A DNA stretch of 64,000 bases, taken from the NCBI GenBank assembly GCA_049604715.1, contig JBMYTV010000003.1, forward strand, positions 4,228 through 68,227, written 5' to 3'. The notes below the pieces were generated by a model. It made no database searches. It saw nothing but the letters and a program-made list of their open reading frames with translations, and was not told the DNA's origin. Positions 3,676 to 31,217 of this stretch are shown here, piece by piece. Source of the stretch: Patescibacteria group bacterium. Lineage in GTDB: Bacteria; Patescibacteriota; Patescibacteriia; S139-126; S139-133. The stretch's first letter is position 1. The number at the start of each line of letters is the position of its first letter. Position numbers and translations under genes: made by a program.

Positions 3676-3703
3676 GACTCGAACAACTATTTAGTTCAAC
3701 AAG

Positions 3704-3732
3704 CAACCACCCTAACTGGGTGGTTGTTTTTT
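3704..3732 (+). terminator. Rho-independent terminator
   Basis: caaccaccc-taact-gggtggttg hairpin followed by TTTTTT, directly after the 3247-3675 CDS. Confidence 0.6.
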
Positions 3733-3758
3733 AGTGAATACAAATTGTGTTCAGGAAA

Positions 3759-5330: not shown

Positions 5331-5335
5331 ACCTT

Positions 5336-6901
5336 TTAGGTCATTATGCTATCAAATACCATTTGCCATGGCTTCTGCACTTCCATGCAGTGAAGAACCG
5401 TAGGTGCAATATGCCCTAGCACTCCTTGCCCTAGCTTCTTCTGCTCATGCGGATGATTTGAAACAATAATAAATGGTACTGGATTAGTAGAGTGCTCTGT
5501 ATCAACACCGCCTGTACCTGTGATTATTTCTTCTACATTACCATGGTCAGCTGTAATAAACAAATGACCGTTTTTTGCTAGCACTGCCTTAACTAAACGG
5601 CCAATATTCTCATCAATAGACTTTACCGCAGCGAGACTGGCCTCAAGGTTTCCAGTGTGACCAACCATATCTGCATTGGCAAAATTAGCAGCTATAAAGT
5701 CATACTCATCATTTTCTATCTTCTCTATGATGGTATCGGTTATCTGAGGAGTTGCCATCTCAGGAGTCTCATCATAAGACTTCACATTTGGCGATGGTAT
5801 AAGCATGCGTTCCTCTCCAGCTACAGGATCAGCATGTCCGCCATTGAAGAAAAAAGTAATATGAGCAAACTTCTCACTCTCAGCTATATAAAGCTGCCGC
5901 AAATCACCAAGCGCATATGGGAGTGTTCCTTCTAAGTCTTCTGAAGGAAATGCAGTAAGTATACTATCTAGATCAGGACCAAAATCAGTCATAGCCACAA
6001 ATACCAAGTTTTCTAATGTCTTTTTTCTAGTAAAACTTTTTGGGTTTTTTTCAGTAAAATCTGGTTGGACAAATACCTTTGATAACTGACGTGCTCTGTC
6101 AGATCGAAAATTGAAAAATATAACCGCGTCATTGTCATGTATACGCGATGGCTTACTGCTATCTGATGCTATGATCCTTGGTGTAATAAACTCATCCGAC
6201 TCTCCTTCTTCATATGCTTTTCGTATAGCCTCTTCAGAAGAACTGAACTTTGGAATGTTTGTCCCAAGTGTAAGTGTGTCATACGCAAGCTCAGTACGAT
6301 CCCAAGACTTACGTCTATCCATACCATAGAACCGTCCCATAATGGTTACAATCTGCTCGTTTGGTTGTAGCTTTTTCTCAAGCTCTGATACAAACGTCAG
6401 CCCTGAGAACTTCTCAGTATCCCTTCCATCGGTAAACAAATGCAAATAGACATGTTCTATTTTGCGTTTGCGAAATAACTCAACCAAGGCTATAAGATGC
6501 TCTGGATTTGAGTGACCAGAGTTAAAATCTGTCAAAAGACCAACCAAGTGAACTGATGATTCATGCTCTGTTACGTGCTGGACTGCTTGTTCAAAGGCAG
6601 CGTTTTTATAAAAAGTACCCTTTTCAATGCTATTTGATATTTTAAGAACGTCCTGCTCTACTATCCTACCTGCACCGATATTAAGGTGACCCGCCTCTGA
6701 GTTACCATCTTGATGTGGAAGCAAACCAACTGCTGAACCAGATGCACCTAGCATGGCATGGGGATACTCCTCCCACAGATGATCCATAATAGGAGTTTGT
6801 GCGAGTTTGATAGGATTTTTTTCTTGTTTTGGGGCTAGTCCCCAGCCATCAATAACCACTAACACTGCTGGACCTGCCTTTTGCGTAGAACTCATATGCA
6901 A
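5336..6901 (-). CDS. gpmI: 2,3-bisphosphoglycerate-independent phosphoglycerate mutase (paralog 1)
   Basis: VIDGWG, GNSEAGH, ITADHGN and STNPVP motifs. It is a divergent tandem paralog of the adjacent gene. Confidence 0.85.
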   Translation of the reverse strand: MHMSSTQKAGPAVLVVIDGWGLAPKQEKNPIKLAQTPIMDHLWEEYPHAMLGASGSAVGLLPHQDGNSEAGHLNIGAGRIVEQDVLKISNSIEKGTFYKNAAFEQAVQHVTEHESSVHLVGLLTDFNSGHSNPEHLIALVELFRKRKIEHVYLHLFTDGRDTEKFSGLTFVSELEKKLQPNEQIVTIMGRFYGMDRRKSWDRTELAYDTLTLGTNIPKFSSSEEAIRKAYEEGESDEFITPRIIASDSSKPSRIHDNDAVIFFNFRSDRARQLSKVFVQPDFTEKNPKSFTRKKTLENLVFVAMTDFGPDLDSILTAFPSEDLEGTLPYALGDLRQLYIAESEKFAHITFFFNGGHADPVAGEERMLIPSPNVKSYDETPEMATPQITDTIIEKIENDEYDFIAANFANADMVGHTGNLEASLAAVKSIDENIGRLVKAVLAKNGHLFITADHGNVEEIITGTGGVDTEHSTNPVPFIIVSNHPHEQKKLGQGVLGHIAPTVLHCMEVQKPWQMVFDSIMT

Positions 6902-6922
6902 AATATTAGACCAATGACTCCT

Positions 6923-8167
6923 CTACGATCGTGTTAATCGCTCTTCAATATAAAGCAAGCGGTTGTACTTTACCACGCGTTCTCCACGTGATGGAGCTCC
7001 AGCTTTTATAAATGGCGCATTGATAGCTACAGATAAATCTGCAATAAAGTCATCAGTGGTCTCACCAGATCGATGAGATACCACAGGCGTTAGATTATGT
7101 TTTTGAGCTAGTTGTACAGTCTCAATAGTCTCCGAAACTGTACCAATTTGATTAAGCTTGATAAGCACGGCATTTGCTGCTTCCATATCAATTCCTTGCT
7201 CAAGACGAGTCTTATTAGTCACAAACAAATCATCGCCAACAATAAGCATATTATCCTTGAGCATACGATTCATAATCTGCCAGTTTGCCCAATCATCTTC
7301 ACCTAGACCGTCTTCAATGGAAATAATCGGATAATGCTCTTGCCACTTTTTATAAAGTTCAATAAGCTCAGTTGCATCAAGCTTTTTACCTTCAAACTCA
7401 TATGTACCACCTTTCATAAATTCAGAAGCTGCTACATCAAGCGCAATAGACACATCAATACCTTGTCGATACCCAGCATGATCAATTGCTTGCATCAAAA
7501 GCTGCAATGCTTGGTTGTTGTCTTCCAAGTTAGGCGCAAACCCTCCCTCATCACCAAGTCCGGTTGCATAACCTTGTTCATGTAAGATTGTTTTTAGAGA
7601 CCGAAAGGTCATTACACAAAACTCAAGTTGCTCTTCAAAGGTATCAGCGCTTGGCACAATCATAAACTCTTGAATTGAAAGTGAGTTGTCAGCGTGCCGT
7701 CCTCCATTAATAATATTCATCATTGGACGTGGGATAGCACCCTTTAGTGTAGTTCCATACACGTCCGCTAAATGCCTATAAAGTGGTTTTCCAGCAGATA
7801 GTGCACCTGCTCTAGCACAAGCCATTGAAACTGCTAAAATTGCATTGGCGCCTAATTTTTTCTTATTAGAAGTACCATCTAGAGCGATCATAGTTTCATC
7901 TATCTTTTGTTGATCTTCAGCGTCCATATCAAGCAGCTCATCTCTGATATCCTTTAGGATGTGTTTGATAGCTTTTTTTACACCATCTCCTCCATAACGA
8001 TCATCCTTATCTCGAAGCTCTAAAGCTTCGTGACTGCCAGTAGACGCTCCTGACGGAACTTGAGCAGAAGCCTCTAAACCAGATGAAAGCACAACAGTTG
8101 CTTGAACAGTTGGCCGACCTCTAGAGTCAATAATTTCTCTTGCTGTAATATCGTGTATATGTGCCAT
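6923..8167 (-). CDS. eno: Enolase
   Basis: N-terminus IIDSRGRPTVQATV. Full-length enolase motifs including SHRSGETTD near the C-terminus. Confidence 0.95.
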   Translation of the reverse strand: MAHIHDITAREIIDSRGRPTVQATVVLSSGLEASAQVPSGASTGSHEALELRDKDDRYGGDGVKKAIKHILKDIRDELLDMDAEDQQKIDETMIALDGTSNKKKLGANAILAVSMACARAGALSAGKPLYRHLADVYGTTLKGAIPRPMMNIINGGRHADNSLSIQEFMIVPSADTFEEQLEFCVMTFRSLKTILHEQGYATGLGDEGGFAPNLEDNNQALQLLMQAIDHAGYRQGIDVSIALDVAASEFMKGGTYEFEGKKLDATELIELYKKWQEHYPIISIEDGLGEDDWANWQIMNRMLKDNMLIVGDDLFVTNKTRLEQGIDMEAANAVLIKLNQIGTVSETIETVQLAQKHNLTPVVSHRSGETTDDFIADLSVAINAPFIKAGAPSRGERVVKYNRLLYIEERLTRS

Positions 8168-8169
8168 AA

Positions 8170-9357
8170 TTATTTAACTAATGGTAGTAATCCAGGTTGG
8201 CGTCTATCTGAAATAAAAGATAATAACGCCCCACCTCCAGTTGATGCAAATGTAACATCATCAAGCAAACCAAGACGAGCAAACACCCGTACTGTTTCTC
8301 CGCCACCTATAAAACTCTTCATTGACCCATCATGAGTACGCGCTGCAATAAATTCAGCAATTGCCTCTGATGCATGAGAGCCTTGTCGCTGTTCAATCAT
8401 ACCAAGTGGCCCATTCCATAGTACTGACTTGGCTTTGCGCAGTTGAGATACATACTCTAGTACCGTGTTCATACCAAGATCTACGATTGCATCTTTTTTC
8501 AAAACGCTTTCAATGTCTTTTAGTTGTGACTCAATTTTCTTAGTACTTGTATCATCACAAATGCAGTCTGTAGGAAGTAGTACTTTTTTGTGACGTGCTA
8601 ACACCTTGCCCTCAGTAACAAAATCTTTTTCATAAATTGATGCACCTACTTCTTGCCGTGCGCTCTTAAGTATTGTGTTAGCAAGTACACCCCCAACTAA
8701 TACTCTTTCTGCTTTTGGCATTAGTTTTTGTATAAGTGGAAGTTTTGTAGCAGCTTTTGCACCTCCCATGATCAAGAAATGTGGTTTTGTTGGCTTGGCA
8801 ATAAACTTATCCAATGTACTAACTTCTTTATCCATCAGAAGCCCAGCATAGCTTGGCAAAAACTCTGGTATACCAGTCATACTTGCGCTGTCACGATGAA
8901 TAGCTCCAAATGCATCATTAATAAACACATCACCAAGGCTTGCTAGGTCATGTGCGAATGTATTGTCACTAACCTCCTCACCAGGATGAAACCGCAAATT
9001 CTCCAAAAGGACAACTTGGCCTGGCTTCATCCTGTCGAGGTGACGGCGGGCCCCCTCACCCTCATGCAAGGGTATCATTTTTACTGGTTTACCCAGTAGC
9101 TTTCCCAGCGTGATAGCAACTGGTTTAAGCGATAAGTTTGGATCTTCCTTTCCATGCGGACGTCCACGGTGCGATAAGATAATAACTTTTGCACGCTTCC
9201 GTATCAGATAACGAAGTGTAGGGATAGTAGCCTCTATCCGGTACCGTTCATCAGCATGCACACGTCCTTTTTCGTCTGTCTCAACATTATAATCAACACG
9301 ATATAAAACGCGTTTAGCCTGAAGTGTATGGAGTTGTGTGCAAACCCGTAGCTTCAT
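8170..9357 (-). CDS. pgk: Phosphoglycerate kinase
   Basis: RVDYNVE near the N-terminus, GGGA/GGGETV glycine-rich motifs, and typical 395-aa length. It sits 2 nt upstream of eno. Confidence 0.9.
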   Translation of the reverse strand: MKLRVCTQLHTLQAKRVLYRVDYNVETDEKGRVHADERYRIEATIPTLRYLIRKRAKVIILSHRGRPHGKEDPNLSLKPVAITLGKLLGKPVKMIPLHEGEGARRHLDRMKPGQVVLLENLRFHPGEEVSDNTFAHDLASLGDVFINDAFGAIHRDSASMTGIPEFLPSYAGLLMDKEVSTLDKFIAKPTKPHFLIMGGAKAATKLPLIQKLMPKAERVLVGGVLANTILKSARQEVGASIYEKDFVTEGKVLARHKKVLLPTDCICDDTSTKKIESQLKDIESVLKKDAIVDLGMNTVLEYVSQLRKAKSVLWNGPLGMIEQRQGSHASEAIAEFIAARTHDGSMKSFIGGGETVRVFARLGLLDDVTFASTGGGALLSFISDRRQPGLLPLVK

Positions 9358-11029: not shown

Positions 11030-12100
11030 TTAATAATAAGTTGGTTCCGACTTATAACTTCGTGAAATTGAATCTGTATCATTCACTGACTTCCCTATCC
11101 TAGAAAGCATTAAAATCTCCTCTTCGTCTTCGAGATTAAATATCCCTTTTATAGAATCATATATGCTCAGTACTTTTTCTGATTGTGCCCTAGACAAAAA
11201 GTCAACACTCCGCCTATTTTCATTTATCCTATGACGGAGATATATCAGAGCAGCTACTGGTTGTAGTGATAGTTGTTTGGAGGTTAAATGAAGCCAAATT
11301 CTTTGAAGTAATATCCCTACATCAAGATAAAGTTTTTGTTTTTTCACATTTTTAGTAGTACTTAACAAGATATAGGAATCTGTTTCAGAATAGAGCCCTG
11401 CCGAATCTTTAGAGATTAATTTCGTTAAACCTAGAATCTTAGCTAATCTAGCTAAACCGTCAAAATTGAGTAGCAACCTAAAAACAAATTCTTTTTCTTT
11501 TTCCAAGGCTAATGTTCTTATGTACAAACCCTTTCTTTTTTCTTTATGTACCCTCTCTTTCCAAACTATAGATGACAATAAAGAACTTCGAATGAATTTG
11601 TTCTCTAAAATCAGCATCTCATTATAAGACAATAATTTTGCAATCTCATTTACTTTAGTGGATTGACTTACCACTTTAACGAACACCTTCTTGTCAGAAA
11701 AACTTTTAAGTGTGTTAATGACCGAATCTTGAACACTATTCTTTAAGTATGGACGTCTATCTGTAAATCTATTTTTTATACTTTCATAATTTTCATCGAG
11801 TTTTTTTTCAGACTTTGTAAATTCAACCTTTGCAACAATATCACTACATTTATCAGGAAAATAAAACAAATTGCAACCATATCCCTTATATGAAGAGATA
11901 ATCCTTATATTTTCTAATAACGCACCTACAGCCACTAAGCTACCTCTTTTTTGGTAATTGTAAGCTTCGTTATCATTCGATGCAGTACATTTAATAAACA
12001 ACACATCATTCTTGATTCTAAATCTCCAAGGCTGAGAATTGTCACCTGAAGGAGCTTCAACAGCTTCTACGAGTATTTCTTTTATCTTCTGTTCTAGCAT
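11030..12100 (-). CDS. Nitroreductase-superfamily (FMN-dependent, SagB/McbC-like) oxidoreductase
   Basis: APSGDNSQPWRF motif (nitroreductase family S-x-N-x-QPW-F). A second RRPY-type segment suggests a two-lobed architecture. It is the last gene of a 4-gene operon. Confidence 0.55.
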   Translation of the reverse strand: MLEQKIKEILVEAVEAPSGDNSQPWRFRIKNDVLFIKCTASNDNEAYNYQKRGSLVAVGALLENIRIISSYKGYGCNLFYFPDKCSDIVAKVEFTKSEKKLDENYESIKNRFTDRRPYLKNSVQDSVINTLKSFSDKKVFVKVVSQSTKVNEIAKLLSYNEMLILENKFIRSSLLSSIVWKERVHKEKRKGLYIRTLALEKEKEFVFRLLLNFDGLARLAKILGLTKLISKDSAGLYSETDSYILLSTTKNVKKQKLYLDVGILLQRIWLHLTSKQLSLQPVAALIYLRHRINENRRSVDFLSRAQSEKVLSIYDSIKGIFNLEDEEEILMLSRIGKSVNDTDSISRSYKSEPTYY

Positions 12101-12107
12101 AAATAAG

Positions 12108-13550
12108 TTATTTTTTGGTAATTATTTTTGGTTTACCTGTAGAATCTAGGTATACTCCATTAACCTGCTTTGGATAAAAGTTCTTTTCATTATATTCTTT
12201 GAATACGATACTTGGCAGAGCCTTGCTCTTTATCATCTCTAATAACTTACTATACTCTATATTCAGCCTTTTTAAATTCCTTACTATACTTTCCAGTATA
12301 ATGACTTTATCAGCATCTGTTAAATCAGCTACTTTTAAATTCTTTGAAAGCTCTAAAACTAATGTGAAAATTTCTTCTTTGCTTTTATTCTTTAACTTCG
12401 AATATGAGAAAAACTTACCGGTTAAGAATTTCTTACACTCTCTGGACTCAATGCCTGCCAAAATATGTTCTGGGTATATGTGTAGTGCGTAGAAAGTCAC
12501 ACAAACATTAGACCTACCTGTAACTGCTACAATTGGTAGATTCCAAGCTGGAAATTTTTCAACAATATTCCTTATCAACTTTGAGTCACTCTTTTTTAAT
12601 AACTCGTTTATTGTTAGCACACAGCCCTTATCTTTAATGTTGTATCTAACCAAGGGAATAGGCGTGTTGATAGTAATGATCAATTGTTTATTAACACGTT
12701 CAAAGAAAATAGATCTGGGATGGAATTGGTATAACCCAGGCACAGCATCAACGCTATCGAACAACGTCATTAACAATGAAGTGGGGAGTTTTTTTCTTAA
12801 ACTGATGGTCAGCGGTGTTTCGTAAGCCATTTTACCAGCATCAGTAGACCCGTAAACGCTACATATAGAAAAAGGGTCTCTTTGTCCCAAAACAGTTAAC
12901 AAATCATCTCTCCATTCTTCAGAAATTTTACTTCCCGTAACTAAAACTTTGTATTTCTTATTATTGTCAAGCAACTTTAATTTTTTAGCCTCTAATACTA
13001 TATCCATTACAAAAGCTGGGTGGCCTGCAAGTACTATATTTTTATAAAAATTACCTAAAGATGACAAGACTGACAATGTTCTTTCAACCGAGTATCCTGG
13101 GGTAGCTGTGGTTATATTAAATCCTTGCCTAGATAGCCCACGGCATGCAGCTAATGTATGGTGACCAGCCATCCAAAGGTCCATTGCAAAACTAATTACC
13201 ACTAAAGTGGGCTCACCTTTTTTAATGTTATACAGCCCACTAAATAACTTTTTATGTGATAATAAACTAAGCGCCTCTTGTTGATCACTTCCAAACCAAA
13301 ACGTAGGACTACCTGTTGAGCCTGAGCTGGCATAAACAATAGGAGGCTTGCTTAATTTATCCTGTAACTGATCCACTGAGTACTTCAAAATGTAACTTTC
13401 TTTCGAAGTAAGGGGTATTTGCGACCATTCTATGTATGAGCCAACCGATTTTCTTGTATTATAATCGCTTAACTCCAGGTAACTAGCGTAGGCTGGAACA
13501 TTCTTTATAGCATGATAATAAGTTTGTTTTGCGTTTACAAATCCTTGCAT
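12108..13550 (-). CDS. Adenylate-forming enzyme, PaaK / coenzyme F390 synthetase-like (ANL superfamily)
   Basis: YASSGSTGSPTFW matches the PaaK/F390-synthetase P-loop (SSG[ST]TG.P). 480 aa. Confidence 0.6.
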   Translation of the reverse strand: MQGFVNAKQTYYHAIKNVPAYASYLELSDYNTRKSVGSYIEWSQIPLTSKESYILKYSVDQLQDKLSKPPIVYASSGSTGSPTFWFGSDQQEALSLLSHKKLFSGLYNIKKGEPTLVVISFAMDLWMAGHHTLAACRGLSRQGFNITTATPGYSVERTLSVLSSLGNFYKNIVLAGHPAFVMDIVLEAKKLKLLDNNKKYKVLVTGSKISEEWRDDLLTVLGQRDPFSICSVYGSTDAGKMAYETPLTISLRKKLPTSLLMTLFDSVDAVPGLYQFHPRSIFFERVNKQLIITINTPIPLVRYNIKDKGCVLTINELLKKSDSKLIRNIVEKFPAWNLPIVAVTGRSNVCVTFYALHIYPEHILAGIESRECKKFLTGKFFSYSKLKNKSKEEIFTLVLELSKNLKVADLTDADKVIILESIVRNLKRLNIEYSKLLEMIKSKALPSIVFKEYNEKNFYPKQVNGVYLDSTGKPKIITKK

Positions 13551-13552
13551 TG

Positions 13553-14566
13553 TTACTTAGTAAAACTATTATAATTAATTAGATAATTTCCACAAATCTG
13601 TTTCGTTAAGAGTATGCTTCTGACAGCATCACTTGCCACCGCACCAGCCACCATTGAAGTTGTTCCTAACTGTGGTATTGAAACCAATGTACTACCAACT
13701 TCCTTTAGGGAACTCCGTAACCTATCTCCTGGCTCAAAACCTATTATTTTATTAGCAATTCTAATCCAATCTTGCTTGTTTAATAAATGCCCAGCATCTA
13801 CTATCTTCTCATCTTTTAATACGCCGTGAAACAACTCTTGGTCTTCACTGATGTCATACCTTTCAATGCTAATTACAACTTCTTCACCAAAGTCAGTAGC
13901 CATGACTACTGGAATTTTGTTCACTTTACAGTATTTTCTCAACTCAATTTTTATACTTATGTCATCGACAGCGTCTACTAAAACATCAATATTTTCGTTT
14001 ATCACAAAATCATTAATATTACTTTTCTGTACTCCACAATCAAAAAACTTCATATCTATAAATGGATTTACCTCCCAGGATTTTCGCATAGCAACCTCAC
14101 CTTTTAAAGAACCATAATCAACCAGGCCAGCGTTTATCCGGTTTAGGTTAGTAACCTCTACCGTGTCAAAATCTGCTAAAACAAACTTGTTTCCAACAGC
14201 CGATCGTAGTAAACCATCTAATACTTTCGAACCTACTGACATCCCTGCTATTCCAATCTTTGAATTGTATACCTTTACCTGCTCAGCTTGTCGAATCAAG
14301 TTTTTATTCCGTGAGGTAATTAAATCGACATAAAAATCTTCGCCGGGTAAACAGAAAACCCTATCTAACCAATCGTAATGAGCCCACACTCTTTTAATAT
14401 TATGGTGGCACACAAATTCACTTACCAAACTGTCACTTATACTATTCTTTAACTTTGGATTATCAATTAAAACCAACTCCCTTATACAATCATTGAAAAT
14501 ATTAACAATTTCAACTTCTGTATTGAACTTTGGTTTTTCTTCATATATTGTAGGCTTCTCAATCAC
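13553..14566 (-). CDS. ThiF/MoeB/E1-like adenylyltransferase with ~100-aa N-terminal extension
   Basis: Rossmann nucleotide-binding motif KIGIAGMSVGSKVLDGLL at about residue 105. The N-terminal extension precedes the E1 fold, as in MccB/PaaA-type peptide-binding E1-likes. Confidence 0.6.
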   Translation of the reverse strand: MIEKPTIYEEKPKFNTEVEIVNIFNDCIRELVLIDNPKLKNSISDSLVSEFVCHHNIKRVWAHYDWLDRVFCLPGEDFYVDLITSRNKNLIRQAEQVKVYNSKIGIAGMSVGSKVLDGLLRSAVGNKFVLADFDTVEVTNLNRINAGLVDYGSLKGEVAMRKSWEVNPFIDMKFFDCGVQKSNINDFVINENIDVLVDAVDDISIKIELRKYCKVNKIPVVMATDFGEEVVISIERYDISEDQELFHGVLKDEKIVDAGHLLNKQDWIRIANKIIGFEPGDRLRSSLKEVGSTLVSIPQLGTTSMVAGAVASDAVRSILLTKQICGNYLINYNSFTK

Positions 14567-22196: not shown

Positions 22197-22598
22197 ATGA
22201 TGAAATACTTGTCCGTTTTACTCGTCGCGCTGTTGCTGATTACAGCGTCAACCTTTGCCCAAACAAAAACTAATGAAGGAAAGGTTGAAACCTTAAAGTC
22301 AGCCACCGGCGAAATCGTTTCAAAGACGTATAGTGATGTTTCCATCACGATTACATGCCCCTGGTTGGATCCCGAAACATACGCCGAGGCCAAGGCAGAA
22401 GTACTCTACGCAAAGGCAGACTCCACCAGCACTACCGCAACACCTTATCGGTTAAACCTCTACCTGAAAGACCAAAGCAAAGCGCACGGCGACTATAACC
22501 TCCGGAATTTGGAAAAGACTGAAATGAAAATTATCATCTCCGACCCGGACAATGGCAACAAAGTATTAGTTCGATTTCCACCTGCAGCCACATCCTAA
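22197..22598 (+). CDS. Small secreted hypothetical protein
   Basis: Signal peptide MMKYLSVLLVALLLITASTFAQT. No recognisable domain. Confidence 0.5.
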   Translation: MMKYLSVLLVALLLITASTFAQTKTNEGKVETLKSATGEIVSKTYSDVSITITCPWLDPETYAEAKAEVLYAKADSTSTTATPYRLNLYLKDQSKAHGDYNLRNLEKTEMKIIISDPDNGNKVLVRFPPAATS

Positions 22599-22681: not shown

Positions 22682-25600
22682 TTAACGAATCAAAAGCATC
22701 TTTTTCACCTTGTGAAACGACTCTGTTGATATGCGGTAAAAATACATACCGCTCGCAACATTTCGTGCGTCCCACTGCACATGGTGATATCCGGCATTAT
22801 GCCGCTCATCAACCAAACGAGCAACCTCCTGTCCTAGGAGATTGTATACCACGATTTTCACATGAGTATCATGAGGTAAATCAAACGCTATAGTCGTCAT
22901 TGGATTAAAAGGATTGGGGTAATTTTGATGGAGATTGTACTCTGTTGGCAATAGTGAGATGACTTCATCGTCACCAGCGCTTTGCTTAGCAAGTAGATTA
23001 GCATCATACGGAAGACCACTGCCATCTGCATACAGATCTGTAATCTCACTACTACTCAGCATCCGAGACCACATACCAAGCTGATCAACAGCGCCATTGG
23101 CATAGGGCGCATTACCGTTTTCCCAAGCACCAACCCTGAATACAGCTGCGCTGGTATTGATCGTAGTTGGCAAACCGCCAAGACTGTCGGTAAGAACACC
23201 ATCCTTGTACACGCGAACACTTCCAATTGACATATCATATACCCAGACAAAGTGGTACCACGCATTACTACTGATAGCACCAATATCCAGATATACTTGT
23301 GATGTAGTGTTATTTGTACCGTCTGCAGAAATTACTACCTGAGCCTTGTTACCACTACTAAGTTTCCTAATACATACCATATAGCTTCGATTGGGCTGGC
23401 CATCATCCTTGTAGACAACTGGAAACTTTGTTTTTGTTTCCCATGACTTTGGATGCAGCCATGCTGATATCGTAAAGCTACTGGCTAGATCAAGGCCATA
23501 CTCTGTGCCTGGTTGAATTGACAAATACTCACTGTTACTTGCTGTAAAATCAGCCGCAACATCCTGGATGCCAGCAAGCGACGTAACAGTGTTGTTGTCA
23601 GCCAAATCATTTGAACCATGGGCATCGTATCGCGTGCCACTGGTCTCATTCATCTCCCAGAAAGAAACAAGATCATCAGTCAGTGTCGCATGGTGTGCAA
23701 TATCAGGCTCACTCGGAACCATCACCGTGTCATTACTTGCTGCACGATACACCACCTGCAGCACCGGCCGTTTTGCTACATCAACATGATCAGCAGTAGC
23801 AACCTGCACGTACGATCCGCGTCCCCACACACCGGCATACTCATTCACCGTCATATCGAGGATGTCATCACCTTGCCGCAGAGCAAGTGTAGTCATGCTA
23901 CTCAGATCGATCCATGACCTTCCAGCAGAATCAAGCTCTATCACCACTGTGCTATCAAGATGCAGTGCAAAATCCGTTGGTGCAAAATACAACCGCTCAG
24001 CACCTTCGATAGGGTTAGATATTGCACCCATGTGGCTGTAATCACCTGCTGTAACCGGCAAATCGTACGTCCCGCGTGTTACCCCGAGAAAGTGCGACTG
24101 ACCTTGAGAATTCCGGTAATCAACCACATGCATCTGCAGCGTCGCAGCTACTATTTCAACAGTATCAGGCAACACTGAGGTATCAAATGGCAATGCATAC
24201 CGCCGAATATCACCCCATGCCGGCCCATCAAACTGACTTACGCCAATCTGAACCACTGTAGCATCAACCGATTCAACCACGCCAGTTGCCAGGTCATGAT
24301 GATATGACCAAGAGGTCTGGTAACCATAATTACCATCCTGCACCACTACATCAGCGGCATCAGCATAGATCAGCACGGTATCGCAATCAGCACACGCAGT
24401 TGTTGTATCATCCATGACTGTTGTGACAGTTGTAAGCACTGCTTCTGCACTTGGTGTTCCACCACGCTGGTGCGTAGATACATCAGTCAGGTCATCATTA
24501 AACGGCCAATATCCGATGAGTCCACTATCAGCGGTCGCATAATACTCTGTACTGAGCGTCACGTCTTTAGTTGCATTAATCTGGCTTTGCGTGCGAGTAC
24601 GATTCCACACACGCACTTCATCAACATAGCCATTGATCACAGCGCGATTGTAATAGTACATATTGTCATCCGATCCACCAATATACCATGGATAGTCTGC
24701 CTGCCAGGTTGACCCGCAATTACCAGGCTTTGTAGAAACTAGGTTACCATCAAGAAAAAGCTGAATACCAGCAGAGCCATTATAAGTAGCTACGATATGG
24801 TACCAACGATCAAGCTCTAAACTCACAGGATACTCTGCAACATCAGCCGTACCGCTAATAAAGCAATAGATCTTGGATGGTGTCAGACCAAGCTCAAACA
24901 CAGGATTGTTGTGCTCGTTATGCCAGTTGCTAATAATCGCACCTGTTGAAAGCGCATTCAAATACACCTTGCCTTCAAAGGTAAACTGATTACCACTCAT
25001 ACCACCAGATGCCGCCTCAACACGATCCTTATGCCCATCAAAGGCAGCGACTGTATCTATCACTGTTGTGGTTTGCTCTGCCTGCGGATTTGCAACAGTC
25101 ACTGTATATGGATACCGCACTGTTGCCAAAGTACTTAGGTTCTCTCCTTGACTAAGTACTTGTACTTCATAGCGTGAGACATCAGTTGGTAGTGTGAATA
25201 TAGGACTGAGCCATACTGTATCTTGCGCAAAAGACAGTGTGTCATCTGCAGGATTCACATTCCAGTACGACGTTCCGTACGAATCATATAGCCGCACACG
25301 GAAATTAGGCAGTACTACTTTCTGGCCATCATCTTCATCGTGATCAAATGCCACGCGCACGTACACCTGACTTTCAGGTGTATGTTCACGCTTGATTGAA
25401 TCACCAACAGCGTTACTTAAGAACACGCTCGACACATGCACAGAATCAATACCCCAGGGTTGATACACACTAAACCCAAGTGGATTTTGTGCGCCATCAA
25501 TATCCTGGTAGTCCAGTCCATCATGTGCAGACACCCATAGCTCGTGCGCACCCAGATTGTACATTGGATCCATCACTGCGCTAAATGTCAGACTGTCATA

Positions 25601-27280
25601 CGGCATTAGCGTCACACTGGTATCACCAAACATGGTAAACCGCTGATCCTGAGTCTCAAGCTCAAACCGCACAATCTGCTCGGTAGTATCGCCGCTGGTT
25701 GACGCAACAGTTGCTGTAACAACTGCACTATCATACTGCAGCGGTACTGACCCTGGCACAATACTCACTGCCGTTACTTCCAAAAGATCTGGGTTGTAGG
25801 TTGTGTTTGGGTTACCTGCAAGTACAGGAAATAAACGCTCTTGCACTTCAGGTGCAATTGCACCAATCTGCCAACTCTGACCATCTTTGGTGACAAACAC
25901 CTTGAAGGTGTAGTTGCCACTATCAGCAAACGTGTGGTTCACCGTTTGCTCATAAAAGGCATCACCCGCAACCGTCACGTTATTCCATTCCCAGGATGCG
26001 ATTGTGGGGCCGTAGGCACGCAAACGAATACTCTCGTACGTCACTGACTCACTCTCTAAATTCTTGAGCTTCACCGTAAAATCGTACGGGATGTTCTCCA
26101 CGCCAGATGACGGAATCGTCCATTGGTAGATGGATACTGCACCAGTTCCGTTGCCAGAACCACCACTTCCGCCTATACCCGCTATTGTCATCAAAGCGGT
26201 ATTACTAGCGATCTTTGTGCTACCTAACCACACCTCTACAACACCGGGCGTATTTGAATAATAGCTGGGCACATACTTCATATACCCATGATCAAAATAC
26301 TGGTATGTGTTTCCATCTAACTCATTAAACTCTTCATCGCTGGTTGGCGCACCAAGATCGGTAGGTCCGAAATACTGACCACCTGTTTTGTCAGAAAGGT
26401 TCATGTAAAAATCACGAAAACCTTCTTTCAAAAGAAATGCTTCAGTACCAGCAGAATTCAGCATAATAGCCGTGTGGCCATCATAGAATCCAGTATTGTC
26501 TCCATAAAAATCCTGGAGGGTGATACCGGACCAGTCGTGGACGAAGTATCCACCGCCGTTGTCGTTGGGTAATCCTAAATTACCAGTAAGATAAGCGAAC
26601 AAATTAGAGATTGGTTTTGACTGCTTGGAATATGAGCTTGTATGCCAGGGTGGAAAGTCGCCATATTGAGCAAGTCCCAACACCCAGGGCATAGGGTCTG
26701 TGAAATCTGATCCCATACCTGAACCATTTTCATACCCCCTGAGCCATGCAGAGCCATCATTACTTTTAGCTGTCTGTTCATCAGACAGTCGAAAAGCTAA
26801 ATGAAGATGCTCTGCTCCATCACCATTATGCGCATCATCATTGATATAACCCAAAACATCACCCGGATTAACAACGTCGCCATAGCTGTAAGAAAGTGCT
26901 GCACCACCTCTCTCCTGACTACTTCTTAGGTGACCATAGATTATTAGCAACTTAGTTGCCTCGACTAGCTCACCATAGCTATTAACAAACATAAGCACTT
27001 CCGGTAAAACAGACTCTGTTGCAGCAACTAATTCCCCATAACCCACCGCTGGACCGTAATAAACAATCTTACCCGAGGCGATTGCTTCTACAGCTGTACC
27101 TTCTAAAAGGTCAATATCTGACCCTAGATGATTCTGATTGTAGTAAAAACTACGGCCTTCGTAATAATTCCAACCGGAAGACATGGTCTGATTCGGATAA
27201 TTAAAACCCGAAACAGGACTTTGAGCAAAAAGAATACTCGAAACAAAAATGAGCGCCAACAACAAATACGAAATCTTCAT
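22682..27280 (-). CDS. Giant secreted multidomain protein: N-terminal M23 (LytM-type) peptidase, beta-sandwich repeats, two LamG-like (concanavalin-like) domains, C-terminal T9SS-type sorting domain
   Basis: Signal peptide MKISYLLLALIFVSSILFAQS. M23 motifs HLGSDID ... HLHLAF. LamG-like motifs VDEVRVWNRTRTQSQI and DQLGMWSRMLSSSEITDLY. C-terminus NYPNPFNPMTTIAFDLP...VKIVVYNLLGQEVARLV...SGMYFYRI matches the Por/T9SS C-terminal sorting domain consensus. Confidence 0.75.
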   Translation of the reverse strand: MKISYLLLALIFVSSILFAQSPVSGFNYPNQTMSSGWNYYEGRSFYYNQNHLGSDIDLLEGTAVEAIASGKIVYYGPAVGYGELVAATESVLPEVLMFVNSYGELVEATKLLIIYGHLRSSQERGGAALSYSYGDVVNPGDVLGYINDDAHNGDGAEHLHLAFRLSDEQTAKSNDGSAWLRGYENGSGMGSDFTDPMPWVLGLAQYGDFPPWHTSSYSKQSKPISNLFAYLTGNLGLPNDNGGGYFVHDWSGITLQDFYGDNTGFYDGHTAIMLNSAGTEAFLLKEGFRDFYMNLSDKTGGQYFGPTDLGAPTSDEEFNELDGNTYQYFDHGYMKYVPSYYSNTPGVVEVWLGSTKIASNTALMTIAGIGGSGGSGNGTGAVSIYQWTIPSSGVENIPYDFTVKLKNLESESVTYESIRLRAYGPTIASWEWNNVTVAGDAFYEQTVNHTFADSGNYTFKVFVTKDGQSWQIGAIAPEVQERLFPVLAGNPNTTYNPDLLEVTAVSIVPGSVPLQYDSAVVTATVASTSGDTTEQIVRFELETQDQRFTMFGDTSVTLMPYDSLTFSAVMDPMYNLGAHELWVSAHDGLDYQDIDGAQNPLGFSVYQPWGIDSVHVSSVFLSNAVGDSIKREHTPESQVYVRVAFDHDEDDGQKVVLPNFRVRLYDSYGTSYWNVNPADDTLSFAQDTVWLSPIFTLPTDVSRYEVQVLSQGENLSTLATVRYPYTVTVANPQAEQTTTVIDTVAAFDGHKDRVEAASGGMSGNQFTFEGKVYLNALSTGAIISNWHNEHNNPVFELGLTPSKIYCFISGTADVAEYPVSLELDRWYHIVATYNGSAGIQLFLDGNLVSTKPGNCGSTWQADYPWYIGGSDDNMYYYNRAVINGYVDEVRVWNRTRTQSQINATKDVTLSTEYYATADSGLIGYWPFNDDLTDVSTHQRGGTPSAEAVLTTVTTVMDDTTTACADCDTVLIYADAADVVVQDGNYGYQTSWSYHHDLATGVVESVDATVVQIGVSQFDGPAWGDIRRYALPFDTSVLPDTVEIVAATLQMHVVDYRNSQGQSHFLGVTRGTYDLPVTAGDYSHMGAISNPIEGAERLYFAPTDFALHLDSTVVIELDSAGRSWIDLSSMTTLALRQGDDILDMTVNEYAGVWGRGSYVQVATADHVDVAKRPVLQVVYRAASNDTVMVPSEPDIAHHATLTDDLVSFWEMNETSGTRYDAHGSNDLADNNTVTSLAGIQDVAADFTASNSEYLSIQPGTEYGLDLASSFTISAWLHPKSWETKTKFPVVYKDDGQPNRSYMVCIRKLSSGNKAQVVISADGTNNTTSQVYLDIGAISSNAWYHFVWVYDMSIGSVRVYKDGVLTDSLGGLPTTINTSAAVFRVGAWENGNAPYANGAVDQLGMWSRMLSSSEITDLYADGSGLPYDANLLAKQSAGDDEVISLLPTEYNLHQNYPNPFNPMTTIAFDLPHDTHVKIVVYNLLGQEVARLVDERHNAGYHHVQWDARNVASGMYFYRISTESFHKVKKMLLIR

Positions 27281-27333
27281 AGCTTACTCCTTCTCTCCAA
27301 TGAGAGTTTTTAGTTATTAATGAACTTTTATTA

Positions 27334-27347
27334 GTGCTTATAAGCAC
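27334..27347. promoter_or_regulatory. Perfect 14-bp palindrome upstream of the giant gene
   Basis: GTGCTTATAAGCAC, ~55 nt upstream of the start codon. A shared motif AAGTTCATTWATAA follows it, and that motif is also present upstream of the 28060-29283 paralog. Confidence 0.3.
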
Positions 27348-27419
27348 ATATTGGCCGGATACAGATCCAAAACTTGATTATAAACACTTGTCTCGTAATT
27401 TCGCCTATAATATTAGGTG

Positions 27420-28025
27420 CTAAAAAACTTCCAAGGTTGTTAAAACTTTTATATAATTCTTATCTTCATTGATACTACTAACACCATACAAAGTAACTTC
27501 AATGAGCCTGTCATCAAAAGAAGCCACAATTGCTGTAGTCTCTATAATACCCAGAATATTAATGTAATTAACTCCTTTTATCTGTCCAATTGAAATAGTT
27601 TCTTTATCAGCTGCCAATTCTTCCAAATTATAAAGGAGAAGATCATTGCCCGGATGTAGTTTCTGCTTTGCAATGGCTTTATAAAAATCAGGGACTGATA
27701 GCTTTTCTGGATTATTAAAAACTTTAACCTTAAAGCTTCCTTCATCAAGGGGATCATTACTAACAAACAAATTCACAAAAGATTCTCCTTCCAATACAAC
27801 CCCCCACCCCTCCGGATACATAAACTCAAACCCATACTCCTCATTCCGGTACGTCTGCCAGTCTGAGGTGTCGATGTCTGATGCGATCAACTCTCCTTCT
27901 TGAGGCGCTTGGGTTGTGTGATCCTCGTTATCCGGTTGGTTATTTTTTTGAACATACCAAACACTACCTCCAATAAGGAGAATACCTAAAATTGATATTA
28001 TTACTATTATATTTTTTTTATTCAT
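27420..28025 (-). CDS. Small N-terminally anchored secreted protein, paralog family member A
   Basis: MNKKNIIVIISILGILLIGG TM/signal anchor plus the conserved block SDIDTSDWQTYRNEEYGFEFMYPEGW shared with two neighbours. Confidence 0.7.
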   Translation of the reverse strand: MNKKNIIVIISILGILLIGGSVWYVQKNNQPDNEDHTTQAPQEGELIASDIDTSDWQTYRNEEYGFEFMYPEGWGVVLEGESFVNLFVSNDPLDEGSFKVKVFNNPEKLSVPDFYKAIAKQKLHPGNDLLLYNLEELAADKETISIGQIKGVNYINILGIIETTAIVASFDDRLIEVTLYGVSSINEDKNYIKVLTTLEVF

Positions 28026-28059
28026 GTACTTTTTAATAATTTATAAATATATACAGTTA

Positions 28060-29283
28060 TTATATAACTCCACATATGTATAAACTATATTCACTCTCTA
28101 AATTCTTGAGCTTCACCGTAAAATCGTACGGGATGTTCTCCACGCCAGATGACGGAATCGTCCATTGGTAGATGGATACTGCACCAGTTCCGTTGCCAGA
28201 ACCACCACTTCCGCCTATACCCGCTATTGTCATCAAAGCGGTATTACTAGCGATCTTTGTGCTACCTAACCACACCTCTACAACACCGGGCGTATTTGAA
28301 TAATAGCTGGGCACATACTTCATATACCCATGATCAAAATACTGGTATGTGTTTCCATCTAACTCATTAAACTCTTCATCGCTGGTTGGCGCACCAAGAT
28401 CGGTAGGTCCGAAATACTGACCACCTGTTTTGTCAGAAAGGTTCATGTAAAAATCACGAAAACCTTCTTTCAAAAGAAATGCTTCAGTACCAGCAGAATT
28501 CAGCATAATAGCCGTGTGGCCATCATAGAATCCAGTATTGTCTCCATAAAAATCCTGGAGGGTGATACCGGACCAGTCGTGGACGAAGTATCCACCGCCG
28601 TTGTCGTGAGCGTGGCCAATATTACTGAGTAATCTGTGTTTTTCTCGAAAGAACTGAGAAGGCTTGTCATGATTCTGATCATGCCAAACTGCTTCATTAT
28701 TTTCCCAAAAAAAACCAACATTTGGATATGGCGACTCACTCTCTAACCAAGCTACAGGATCGACAAAAGAGTTAGTAGATGGGGAATCTGAACAAGGCAT
28801 TCTGCCCCATGGACTGTTGGGAATGACTTCACCAGACACAACACCAAAGTGAAGGTGGTTGCCTGATGGCCAATACCCTATTGATCCAATCGCTTCTCCA
28901 GCGTACACTAAATCATTTTCTTGCAGAGTTGACTCAACATGACCGTAAAATGAAAGAAAATACTCCGAGGTACCTTCCAGGCGATGTTTAACAATCAAAG
29001 CAACATTACCACCGCCCCAACCATTTGTACTCACCAAAAGAACAACACCATCGGCTACAGCGTATACGGAACTACCCAAGGCAGTTTCATAATCATGTCC
29101 GATATGGTATTCATCAGGAAAATAGCCCGTACCACCATTACAGCCACTAGCCAACCAACCTGCAAAATTTCCCAAACTACTACTACCTGTAGGATAATAA
29201 CAACCCGTCGCTGAATGCTGCATACTTTGTGACCAACAAAAACAAGACCAAAAAAATACTAGCGTTATTACAAACCGTTTCAT
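28060..29283 (-). CDS. Secreted M23 (LytM-type) metallopeptidase with C-terminal domain duplicated from the giant protein
   Basis: Signal peptide MKRFVITLVFFWSCFCWSQS. M23 motifs HIGHDYE...HLHFGV. The C-terminal ~180 aa are identical, at the nucleotide level too, to residues ~230-410 of the 1532-aa protein. Confidence 0.75.
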   Translation of the reverse strand: MKRFVITLVFFWSCFCWSQSMQHSATGCYYPTGSSSLGNFAGWLASGCNGGTGYFPDEYHIGHDYETALGSSVYAVADGVVLLVSTNGWGGGNVALIVKHRLEGTSEYFLSFYGHVESTLQENDLVYAGEAIGSIGYWPSGNHLHFGVVSGEVIPNSPWGRMPCSDSPSTNSFVDPVAWLESESPYPNVGFFWENNEAVWHDQNHDKPSQFFREKHRLLSNIGHAHDNGGGYFVHDWSGITLQDFYGDNTGFYDGHTAIMLNSAGTEAFLLKEGFRDFYMNLSDKTGGQYFGPTDLGAPTSDEEFNELDGNTYQYFDHGYMKYVPSYYSNTPGVVEVWLGSTKIASNTALMTIAGIGGSGGSGNGTGAVSIYQWTIPSSGVENIPYDFTVKLKNLESEYSLYICGVI

Positions 29284-29404
29284 TGCTGTCTCCTTCCTCT
29301 AACGAGGATATTTGATTATAAATGAACTTCTTAACCAACTTATTTGTTGTTGGTACAAGTAGAAAAAAGTATTGTTTCTACCTAATCAACAACAAATCAA
29401 TGTT

Positions 29405-29995
29405 TTAATATACTATTTTCTCGTTTTCAAAATTTAAAGTAAGTAATATCCTATCATATACAGCTAACAAATCATCTTCAATGGCTGCTACTGCGAAATT
29501 TAAGGTATAGCCATTACGATTGATGAGTGTTTCGAGTCCTCCTGTTGTGGATCCACGTAATGCATTTAGCTCCCCAATCTTTACATCAAAACTATCTTGG
29601 TACACTTTTCTATTACCCTTCCAAGTTTGAACCCATATTTTCTGTAAACTTTCTGTATCATACTCATATACCGCTACTGACAACGAGTATGTTTCAGTCC
29701 CTTCTAAATAACGCCTTTTCTCAGTCTCGTAAAAACGTATAATTCCAGGATTATTTCTTCCAATCTCCCACCCCTCAGGATACTTGAACTCAAAACCATA
29801 CTCTTCATTCCGATACGTTTGCCAGTCTGATGTGTCAATGTCAGACGTGATCAACTCTTTGTCATCTTGAGTTTGGGTTGTAGATTGTTGCTCACTTAGC
29901 TGTCCACTATTCCCAACATACCAAACATACCCAGCACTTCCGGCTGCAAAAATGACAAGAATTATAATTGCATAAATAAGTATTTTTTTATTCAT
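29405..29995 (-). CDS. Small N-terminally anchored secreted protein, paralog family member B
   Basis: MNKKILIYAIIILVIFAAGS anchor plus SDIDTSDWQTYRNEEYGFEFKYPEGWE. Confidence 0.7.
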   Translation of the reverse strand: MNKKILIYAIIILVIFAAGSAGYVWYVGNSGQLSEQQSTTQTQDDKELITSDIDTSDWQTYRNEEYGFEFKYPEGWEIGRNNPGIIRFYETEKRRYLEGTETYSLSVAVYEYDTESLQKIWVQTWKGNRKVYQDSFDVKIGELNALRGSTTGGLETLINRNGYTLNFAVAAIEDDLLAVYDRILLTLNFENEKIVY

Positions 29996-30143
29996 ATTTT
30001 TATAATAATGTTACTATATATACCTTTATTGTAACGAATAAAAACATATATAGTAATATTAGCGTTTCATGACTACCTCCGTTGATGTAAAGGAACCTTC
30101 TTGATCTTATGACCAAGCTATTCTTGTCTGGTCACAAAACTAA

Positions 30144-30755
30144 TTAATCGATTTTAAATGTACTCATAACAGCATCTAGGTAACCGCTATTTCTAGTATG
30201 TAATGGCGCTTGAATATTAATCGTTTCAGAATCACTAAACTGAATACAATAACTACTGTAACCTGGAAACTTATATTGAGTTGAACCACCTATCGAAATG
30301 TTTTGATCTAATTCGTAGTAATAGTATCTTCTCCCATACAACTCTCCTTTCCTTTCATTTTTTACTTTACTCTGTAAATCCATATAATAATCACCCCCTA
30401 AGCTAAATAAGCTATCTATACACGCTTCGAAAGACGGGAGACTTACTTCGATAACATAAACATCATCCTCTAAATAATCCCCGATAATTATTTCATTTAA
30501 AGTACCATTCGAGTAACTCAAATCTACCTCCCACCCCTCCGGATACATAAACTCAAACCCATACTCCTCATTCCGATACGTCTGCCAATCTGATGTGTCT
30601 ATATCAGATGTGATCTCCTTAACATTATCTTGAGTTGTTGTTTGTCCTATATCACTTGGCTGTCCATTATTCCCAATATACCAAAGATACCCTACAGCCA
30701 AACCTGAGAGGATGATGATATTGAGAAGTAAAAATAAAAATATTTTTTTATTCAT
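30144..30755 (-). CDS. Small N-terminally anchored secreted protein, paralog family member C
   Basis: The likely start is the internal MNKKIFLFLLLNIIILSG, since the track's upstream Met extension is unlikely. Conserved block SDIDTSDWQTYRNEEYGFEFMYPEGWE. Confidence 0.65.
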   Translation of the reverse strand: MNKKIFLFLLLNIIILSGLAVGYLWYIGNNGQPSDIGQTTTQDNVKEITSDIDTSDWQTYRNEEYGFEFMYPEGWEVDLSYSNGTLNEIIIGDYLEDDVYVIEVSLPSFEACIDSLFSLGGDYYMDLQSKVKNERKGELYGRRYYYYELDQNISIGGSTQYKFPGYSSYCIQFSDSETINIQAPLHTRNSGYLDAVMSTFKID

Positions 30756-30995
30756 GGTATTAGTAAAAATAGTTAACTTTAGCACGAGTATTGCGAGCGT
30801 GAAGCTGCTTGCATGCAATAATGCTCAAACAATAATGACCATTACTAATTCCATGATATAAGACAAATGATAAAGTTTGTTTCATACCTTTTTGAATACT
30901 CGTTATACTCTCTCCACAAACATAACTAGTATACCAAAGATATTTGGTCTGAAGGCCCCGCCCATGCTCTATGACAAAAGCGGGGCTTGCAGGTT

Positions 30996-31217
30996 CTATC
31001 CAATGTCAATAAGTGCCACGCGTACAGATCTTCCATTTGGCAAATCAACTTGTGCACTTGAACCAAGCTCGAGTGAAAGCAGTGCCTGTGCTATTGGCGT
31101 CTCTGATGAAATCTGGCCGCAAGCCGGATTTGATTGGCGAGAATCTACTACTGTAAACTCTGCCACTGTACCATCAAGTAGTACTTTATAGCGTTTTTGT
31201 GGATTTACTTTCCGCAT
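30996..31217 (-). CDS. Stand-alone GreA/GreB C-terminal (FKBP-like) domain protein
   Basis: ISSETPIAQALLSLELGSSAQVDLPNGRSVRVALIDI parallels the GreA C-terminal domain (ISxxSPLAxALLGKxxGDxVEV..PxG...YEIxxI). Only 73 aa, with no N-terminal coiled-coil. Confidence 0.5.
   Translation of the reverse strand: MRKVNPQKRYKVLLDGTVAEFTVVDSRQSNPACGQISSETPIAQALLSLELGSSAQVDLPNGRSVRVALIDIG

Follow-up and report, generated by a model that had tools for sequence, protein, structure and literature searches.

Cassettes in which the gene for an enzyme stands beside the gene for its cognate partner protein are already known, as are immunity proteins with a PsbP fold. Tsi3 resembles Mog1 and PsbP (PMC3792639), and PsbP/MOG1-like genes sit beside toxin genes of type VI secretion systems (T6SS; PMC3482391, PMC4524185). 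The subject here is an island of five consecutive minus-strand genes within a 64-kb stretch of contig JBMYTV010000003.1 (the window), which is labelled Patescibacteria. In this island, genes for two hydrolases of the M23 family, both with signal peptides, alternate with genes for small membrane-anchored proteins, and the same two-gene combination recurs in other genomes. The cassette looks like a real, apparently undescribed functional unit, in which the small protein may neutralize the enzyme encoded next to it.

Little is known of the ways in which Patescibacteria (members of the Candidate Phyla Radiation, CPR) and further ultra-small bacteria attach to their hosts, feed on them or kill them, and almost none of these organisms can be cultivated. 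A compact, recurrent cassette would offer a handle that is testable in surrogate hosts, both of its domains being small and soluble. Producers of lysostaphin-type bacteriolysins are immune through modification of their own wall (Lif/FemABX-type), and no tethered protein is involved.

Conserved pairing of partner and hydrolase genes

All five open reading frames (ORFs) of the original prediction are present. They are the giant hydrolase gene (22682-27280; 1532 aa, identical to NCBI P0001), small1 (27420-28025; 201 aa), M23b (28060-29283; 407 aa, or 387 aa from the NCBI start), small2 (29405-29995; 196 aa) and small3 (30144-30755; 203 aa from an ATG, with a TTG extension to 30818). The small genes encode PsbP-fold proteins with a transmembrane (TM) anchor: small1 lies directly upstream of the giant gene and small2 directly upstream of M23b, while small3 is an orphan without a hydrolase of its own. 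In NCBI, all five proteins belong to one 123,830-bp contig of a metagenome-assembled genome (MAG) labelled "Patescibacteria group bacterium" and carry generic names: "LamG-like jellyroll fold domain-containing protein" (the title of P0001 in full is 'LamG-like jellyroll fold domain-containing protein [Patescibacteria group bacterium]'), "M23 family metallopeptidase" and, for two of the three small proteins, "PsbP-related protein".

The pairing was examined from both sides. Loci for the forward test were collected from species-representative genomes and JGI metagenomes through the accessory module of the hydrolases alone (an alignment of five sequences, an eight-sequence version being too divergent), together with the loci of the closest hydrolase relatives. 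An anchored protein with the PsbP block is encoded immediately upstream and on the same strand in 12 of the 12 loci with upstream DNA (L001, L005, L006, L007, L008, L009, L011 with two pairs, L012, L013, L014 with three pairs, L016 and L023); L010, L015 and L018, where the DNA begins within the hydrolase gene or at its edge, give no information. For the reverse test, four loci were picked through homologues of the small proteins on long contigs (L019, L020, L021, L022), and in 4/4 the next gene downstream encodes an M23 or CHAP hydrolase bearing a signal peptide. Overall, the adjacency is conserved in 16/16 informative loci, and no other block-bearing ORF exists elsewhere in the ~137 kb of locus DNA.

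These loci differ in GC content (0.32-0.53), in their neighbouring genes and in the catalytic domain, of which there are four types, relatives of the cassette carrying CHAP, NlpC-like or C39-like domains instead of M23; one locus comes from an Omnitrophota-labelled genome. Because only the pair is conserved against this varied background, shared descent of the whole region does not explain the adjacency. Alternating arrays like that in the window also occur in L005, L011 and L014, and orphan partners comprise L005_s1 and L006_s1 as well as small3. The small paralogues are not scattered either: a search turned up no more than three for this contig, and each lies within the island. Recurrence of the pair at all informative loci strongly supports the earlier proposal that the alternation of peptidases and small proteins is a functional module and not random paralogy. 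The island is best explained as a tandem array of a conserved two-gene cassette, with small1 paired to the giant enzyme, small2 paired to M23b, and small3 left without an enzyme.

In 17 of 19 pairs, 92-166 nt separate partner and hydrolase. Of the 20 spacers folded across the loci, 14 have a folding z below -2, and a stable hairpin usually lies just after the partner stop codon, as judged by eye. In the island, the spacer between small2 and M23b (29284-29404, minus strand; folding z = -3.5) has hairpin arms at 29331-29352 and 29387-29408, right after the small2 stop; that between small3 and small2 (29996-30143, minus strand) holds an inverted repeat with arms at 30006-30030 and 30037-30061. 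This layout suggests separate or attenuated transcription of partner and hydrolase. Scanning the island for consensus promoters and terminators gave no excess over shuffled sequence, so that the hairpins came to light through spacer folding alone, and no conserved sequence motif in the spacers was evident by eye.

Three further observations were made at cassette loci. The Omnitrophica WOR_2 MAG of L007 (GC 0.53) encodes, at 3974-8220, the same pair of partner and M23 hydrolase with module outside Patescibacteria; Omnitrophota and Patescibacteria are both ultra-small and putatively host-dependent. In L006, from a Patescibacteria MAG, the small-small-hydrolase array is interrupted by two ORFs (3653-4523), which we take to be similar to an IS200/REP-type tyrosine transposase. 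Just upstream of small3, a 73-aa ORF (30996-31217, minus strand), presumably similar to the GreA/GreB C-terminal domain, has a homologue (E 3e-8) at L009 3500-3859 that likewise lies upstream of a partner-hydrolase pair; with two loci only, this may be coincidence.

The hydrolases, an exact repeat and a sorting tail

The giant protein consists of a signal peptide, an M23 domain, an LGFP-like accessory module, a beta-sandwich region, a LamG domain, an unassigned region, a second LamG domain and a C-terminal domain of the type IX secretion system (T9SS) type. Pfam and NCBIfam profile searches agree with the initial assignment of an M23 peptidase with two LamG domains and a sorting domain. The M23 domain (26780-27133, minus strand; aa 50-167) scores 31.1 bits against Peptidase_M23 (cut-off 28.7). 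The 407-aa protein was likewise rightly called an M23 peptidase, its domain (aa 59-149, nt 28837-29109) reaching 46.3 bits against the same cut-off. Alignment with relatives and lysostaphin identifies the HxxxD motif, the middle His and the HxH motif as H51, D55, H117, H158 and H160 in the giant; the corresponding residues of M23b are H60, D64, H115, H143 and H145. All five residues are intact in both domains, which answers the earlier concern that the metal ligands might be broken, and both domains are putative peptidoglycan endopeptidases. The giant M23 domain contains an insertion of ~28 aa. The giant alone gives no significant match to PDB sequences; M23b matches solved M23 structures (E 2e-5). 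AlphaFold2 (AF2) assigns a predicted local distance difference test (pLDDT) score of 70-89 across the giant M23 stretch.

The two LamG/concanavalin-A-like lectin domains of the giant protein lie at 24575-25039 (aa 748-902) and 23042-23494 (aa ~1263-1413), both on the minus strand. Laminin_G_3 (PF13385) matches the protein in two stretches with 131 bits (E 4e-38 for the whole protein), above the curated cut-off, and the second domain scores 68.3 bits on the sub-sequence.

The accessory module (26246-26638, minus strand; giant aa 215-345, ~130 aa) was delimited by alignments with relatives and is marked by the motifs DNGGGxxVHxWxGxxLQDFYGxNTGF...LLKEGF...LGAPTSDE. It is rare, matching only 103 clusters among 1.84 billion representatives, and it usually occupies residues ~200-350 of proteins of 300-3800 aa, after M23, CHAP, C39-like or amidase domains. 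Among 50 family members scanned, 31 have a recognizable catalytic domain (24 M23, 4 CHAP, 2 C39-like, 1 amidase_3), and the C-terminal parts vary, with LamG in 4, CBM_4_9 in 5 and a T9SS tail in 3, plus FG-GAP, RCC1 and NHL. Scores for LGFP (PF08310) stay below the 22-bit cut-off (13.9 in the giant, 16.0 in M23b), and E values of 1e-3 or lower occur in 5 of the 50 members (best 2.7e-4); because of these weak scores the module is called LGFP-like at most. It is presumed to bind the cell wall. The AF2 model of the giant N-terminus with the module (16 sequences) is of low confidence for the module, with a pLDDT of 55.7 overall and ~50-60 in that part.

M23b and the giant gene share a direct repeat of 517 nt that is 100% identical, at 26049-26565 (giant aa 240-411) and 28091-28607 (M23b aa 227-398), both on the minus strand; 172 aa of M23b are therefore identical to the giant protein. 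The flanks of the two copies are unrelated (20-30% identity). The N-terminal M23 domain of M23b belongs to another lineage, its nearest relatives being P0135-P0137 as against P0002 and P0004 for the giant, and the M23b stop codon falls nine codons past the repeat, inside an Ig-like domain. Thus, M23b looks like a recombinant, truncated gene. A simple tandem duplication was rejected as the origin of the repeat: both copies have unrelated flanks, and duplication of the small paralogues is old. Contig L004, from an independent Logan assembly of SRR27204692, reproduces small3-small2-M23b exactly and ends 30 nt into repeat copy 2. Such a break is how a k=31 graph behaves at a repeat with two real contexts, so an artefact is less likely than a non-reciprocal exchange of very recent date.

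The C-terminal sorting domain of the giant protein (22697-22921, minus strand; about aa 1454-1528) is of type A and includes the motif NYPNPFNP, the only instance of such a motif in the window. With 40.5 bits for Por_Secre_tail (cut-off 27) and 39.3 bits for TIGR04183 (cut-off 23), it is by its profile scores a bona fide domain of this kind. To our knowledge, Patescibacteria have no T9SS or outer membrane. No T9SS machinery genes (PorK/L/M/N, Sov/SprA, PorU/V) exist within the 64-kb window, the only stretch looked at, and no paper linking T9SS to Patescibacteria was found in the literature. The tail may have been co-opted without a T9SS or recently acquired from bacteria of the Fibrobacterota-Chlorobiota-Bacteroidota (FCB) group, or else the taxonomic label of these genomes may be wrong.

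Several properties of the giant gene would fit foreign DNA of Bacteroidota/FCB type, mis-assembled or dead after transfer, with the repeat as an assembly error. A T9SS tail is unexpected in Patescibacteria, and an exact, sharp-edged repeat is a classic assembly hazard. Apart from its generic M23 domain and sorting tail, the protein is a near-orphan among 5.8 billion proteins: three relatives (P0002-P0004) match its N-terminal hydrolase part, and the remaining matches are confined to the C-terminal tail of T9SS-tailed proteins, two of them labelled Cloacimonetes and Bacteroidetes, with a tail identity of 40-55%. Against a window background of 0.32 +/- 0.05, GC content at third codon positions (GC3) rises to 0.405 in the giant gene, 0.48 in the repeat and 0.53, the most atypical value in the window, in the ORF at 22197-22598, while the small genes and both M23 N-termini stay at 0.30-0.34. 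Foreign, dead or mis-assembled DNA is nevertheless highly improbable as an explanation. Patescibacteria-type genes lie on both sides of the island and foreign-looking genes interleave with native-looking ones within it; the Logan contig was assembled independently; and T9SS-tailed relatives (P0002, P0135 and P0241) stand on low-GC contigs of 24-348 kb, and each has this type of partner upstream. Identity between the giant and its best relative, P0002, is 47% in the first ~350 residues and 49% in the tail. Beyond this contig the tail occurs in P0002, P0003/P0241, P0135, P0136, P0146 and P0154, and the neighbours of P0241 include a type IV pilus cluster, DUF4012 and DUF5667.

The atypical ORF (22197-22598, plus strand) is convergent with the giant gene and encodes 133 aa with a signal-peptide-like N-terminus ending in FAQ. 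Searches of Pfam, NCBIfam and PHROG gave no match, and the retrieved loci contain no relative; the ORF and the giant gene may have been acquired together.

The tethered partners and their possible role

The original prediction described three anchored paralogues of ~200 aa with a near-identical block, and a near-invariant block of 28 aa, (T/A)SDIDTSDWQTYRNEEYGFEF(M/K)YPEGW(E/G), is present in all three small proteins and nowhere else in the 64-kb window. Between paralogues the block differs at 8-13 of 84 nt, mostly at synonymous sites; thus the copies are old and the block is held by selection rather than by recent copying. Beyond the N-terminal ~75 aa the proteins are barely alignable, and overall identity is 33-35%. 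PsbP_2 (PF18933; cut-off 27 bits) gives 27.3 bits for small1, 30.6 for small2 and 26.5 for small3, in each case over the N-terminal third of the profile only. Homologues occur in Kerfeldbacteria, Moranbacteria, Falkowbacteria and other Patescibacteria. The anchor of small1-3 is a Lys-rich N-terminal segment with one uncleaved hydrophobic helix and some relatives have a lipobox, so that tethering is kept by two means across the loci. The domain that follows is predicted to lie outside the membrane, tethered where the enzyme would act.

The small2 model (84 sequences) is confident, with a pLDDT of 83.9, and comprises a membrane helix (residues 3-28) joined by a disordered linker (29-57) to an alpha/beta domain (59-190) that is assigned by the model to the PsbP/Mog1 fold. 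Fold comparison gave 13.3 for BT_1490, 11.4 for CyanoP and 9.7 for Mog1; among T6SS immunity proteins, 10.4 for TplEi/Tli4, 9.0 for Tsi3 and 6.4 for PA3488; among Eag chaperones, 9.4 for PA0094 and 7.4 for SciW; and 9.2 for the mycobacterial envelope lipoprotein LpqN and 7.3 for DcrB. In BFVD, phage proteins named 'host cell surface-exposed lipoprotein' or 'lipoprotein' have the same predicted fold (Foldseek E 5e-7 to 4e-4), and phages may also deploy tethered PsbP-like proteins.

In the mechanism proposed here, the first gene of the cassette would encode a protein tethered on the outer face of the membrane, with a flexible polar linker of ~30 aa leading to the PsbP/Mog1-fold domain. The second, downstream behind the hairpin, would encode a Sec-exported multi-domain peptidoglycan hydrolase made of an N-terminal catalytic domain, the rare LGFP-like wall-binding module and a highly variable C-terminal part. 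The hydrolases would be outward-directed, wall-cutting enzymes of an epibiotic small-genome bacterium, for which the wall of a host or prey is, by analogy, a reasonable target, and the tethered protein would bind its cognate enzyme at the surface of the producer and neutralize it. This immunity-like role, which draws on analogy with known pairs, is given a probability of roughly 45%. It is favoured because Tsi3, Tli4 and Tli5 use the fold in this way and the domain sits at the producer's own wall; because tethering is kept by two chemistries, some partners are orphans and the partner domains diverge extremely fast; and because the enzymes are rare, patchy, amplified and polymorphic. Such features are typical of conflict systems and not of autolysins that serve growth.

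Several observations weigh against a neutralizing role. The partner gene lies upstream and is set apart by a terminator-like hairpin, while most known immunity genes are found downstream, in tight coupling. Between the partners of the giant and of the 47%-identical P0002 the N-terminal block alone is shared, and the variable part of the partner does not obviously track the catalytic domain. BLAST comparison of these variable parts gave two weak or moderate pairs only, small2 resembling the partner of P0135, the M23b homologue, and L006_s1 resembling L014_s3, with the same NlpC-like enzyme at both loci; such co-variation speaks weakly for cognate pairs but falls short of proving that they co-evolved. 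The partner's most conserved element is the same for every enzyme type, and a general role fits it no less than a specific one. The truncated M23b may be a remnant, and the PsbP fold is also found in chaperones (Eag) and envelope lipoproteins (LpqN). Finally, Gram-positive bacteria that secrete M23 bacteriolysins protect themselves by wall modification, without inhibitors.

Some of these points would suit a helper, with the tethered PsbP-fold protein acting as private docking site, activator or steric chaperone/foldase that would take up the exported hydrolase at the membrane and keep or mature it on the cell surface, in the manner of lipase-specific foldases or of ActH-LytH, SpdC-SagB and FtsEX-PcsB, in which a membrane protein activates a wall hydrolase. 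The evidence of pairing is the same as for immunity, the near-invariant N-terminal block, independent of enzyme type, suits a common docking function, and the partner gene comes first, in its own hairpin-bounded unit. Yet orphan partners (small3, L005_s1 and L006_s1) are unexpected if helper and enzyme act 1:1, the extreme divergence of the C-terminal partner domain is unusual for a foldase, and the transmembrane segments to which Eag chaperones bind, in the cytoplasm, are absent from these hydrolases. A helper function, judged less likely than the immunity-like role, is its main rival.

A wider picture, judged less likely than not, can also be drawn. Patescibacteria and one or more genomes labelled Omnitrophota, as ultra-small bacteria dependent on hosts, might share an unrecognized, Sec-dependent and polymorphic 'wall-breaching' system, in which diversifying hydrolases are built on a common LGFP-like module, each would have a cognate tethered PsbP-fold immunity protein, and cassettes would be amplified in tandem and recombined; some would have co-opted the T9SS sorting domain for a new role without a T9SS, or taken it from their hosts. 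The fresh 517-nt exchange would then illustrate reshuffling by recombination, and a T9SS domain acquired from Bacteroidota-type hosts would indicate who the hosts are. The interpretation first offered for the island is supported in its domain calls and its idea of a module; it missed the PsbP_2/Mog1 fold, the repeat, the truncation of the 407-aa gene and the oddity of a T9SS tail.

Genomic setting and relation to known systems

The island is flanked by housekeeping genes: EF-Ts, S2, L31, RF1 and PrmC upstream, and a TrmB-like regulator, a metallo-beta-lactamase-fold protein, DUF3048, a pilin-like protein, L25 and FtsW downstream. This setting among core genes, together with a genome-like composition of the small genes (GC3 0.30-0.31 versus 0.32) and the fact that M23 and CHAP enzymes are common autolysins, is compatible with a purely domestic function, in which the hydrolases would be the bacterium's own autolysins for growth and division, the small proteins their membrane regulators, and no host or prey would be attacked. 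Such a function appears improbable, as the module, with its 103 clusters in 1.84 billion, defines a very rare and patchy family, the cassette is amplified in tandem with one copy freshly rearranged, and fusions to lectin, CBM, FG-GAP and T9SS-tail domains give proteins as long as 3800 aa; rarity, amplification, fusion and rearrangement are untypical of conserved division machinery.

A prophage lysis module, with the M23 proteins as endolysins and the small proteins as holin- or spanin-like factors, was rejected as having next to no likelihood. The M23 domains do match PHROG endolysin families (E 1e-8), but the matches are restricted to the generic M23 domain and none of the PHROG families matches the small proteins. 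A search of 2.9 million viral contigs did not find the module, housekeeping genes surround the island with no phage genes nearby, the hydrolases carry their own signal peptides, and the folded 130-aa ectodomain of the small proteins is unlike holins.

In the 64-kb window as a whole, no Rfam families (at the gathering threshold) and no tRNA genes were found. Cofactor-independent phosphoglycerate mutase is encoded by two tandem paralogues (3759-5330 and 5336-6901, minus strand) beside enolase and phosphoglycerate kinase, a redundancy unusual in a small genome. A low-GC block (11030-14566, minus strand; GC 0.32-0.35), adjoining a histidine kinase and an aromatic amino-acid lyase, encodes a nitroreductase-like protein, a 480-aa protein without family and a ThiF-like protein, and could be a small peptide-modification cluster. 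Two adjacent genes (47789-48676 and 48810-49952, minus strand) have raised GC3 (0.45-0.46) and no Pfam match, and may be a further acquired segment.

Should the neutralizing role of the partner prove true, it would be the first function for a subfamily of the uncharacterized PsbP_2 family and would extend the use of the PsbP/Mog1 fold in enzyme neutralization beyond Gram-negative T6SS systems. The type of peptidoglycan cut and the origin of the T9SS-type tail could point to the identity of the host.

The components of the cassette each have counterparts in described systems. In domain order, the giant protein resembles type-A T9SS cargo of Bacteroidota/FCB bacteria, with a signal peptide, a multi-domain body and a C-terminal Por_Secre_tail, but its genome is labelled Patescibacteria. 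Lysostaphin, LytM and zoocin A are likewise Sec-exported M23 endopeptidases that combine HxxxD...H...HxH with a wall-targeting domain; the architecture here is far larger (LamG, T9SS tail), and the targeting module is LGFP-like, not SH3b. On the partner side, small1-3 reach or come close to the cut-off of PsbP_2, a family without assigned function, and no description linking PsbP_2 or PsbP-like proteins to wall hydrolases was found in the literature, including that on Patescibacteria. Nor was any description found there of the present family, of a layout that is Sec-dependent and tethered, of the module or of the spread in ultra-small bacteria. Eag proteins (DUF1795: EagR1, EagT6/PA0094, SciW) are cytoplasmic and bind the N-terminal transmembrane segments of PAAR/Rhs effectors, whereas the partners here are membrane-anchored with an external domain and the hydrolases have neither PAAR/Rhs nor internal TM segments.

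The closest parallels as pairs are Tse3-Tsi3 and Tle4-Tli4/TplEi, T6SS pairs of Pseudomonas aeruginosa, in which, as here, the gene for an envelope-degrading enzyme lies beside that for an extracytoplasmic partner. Pairs of the Tse3-Tsi3 type also show orphan and multiple copies, and the role proposed for the tethered partner would be analogous to that of periplasmic Tsi3, which neutralizes the muramidase Tse3. The differences are considerable: there is no sequence similarity; the partner gene here is upstream and hairpin-separated, and its product is tethered by a helix or a lipid; inhibition is proposed here by analogy; and the organisms are Patescibacteria-like and Omnitrophota-like. No genes of T6SS or of the type VII secretion system (T7SS) occur in the window, and the hydrolases carry ordinary Sec signal peptides. 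Thus, the cassette may work like an effector-immunity pair but is not a member of the T6SS/T7SS systems.

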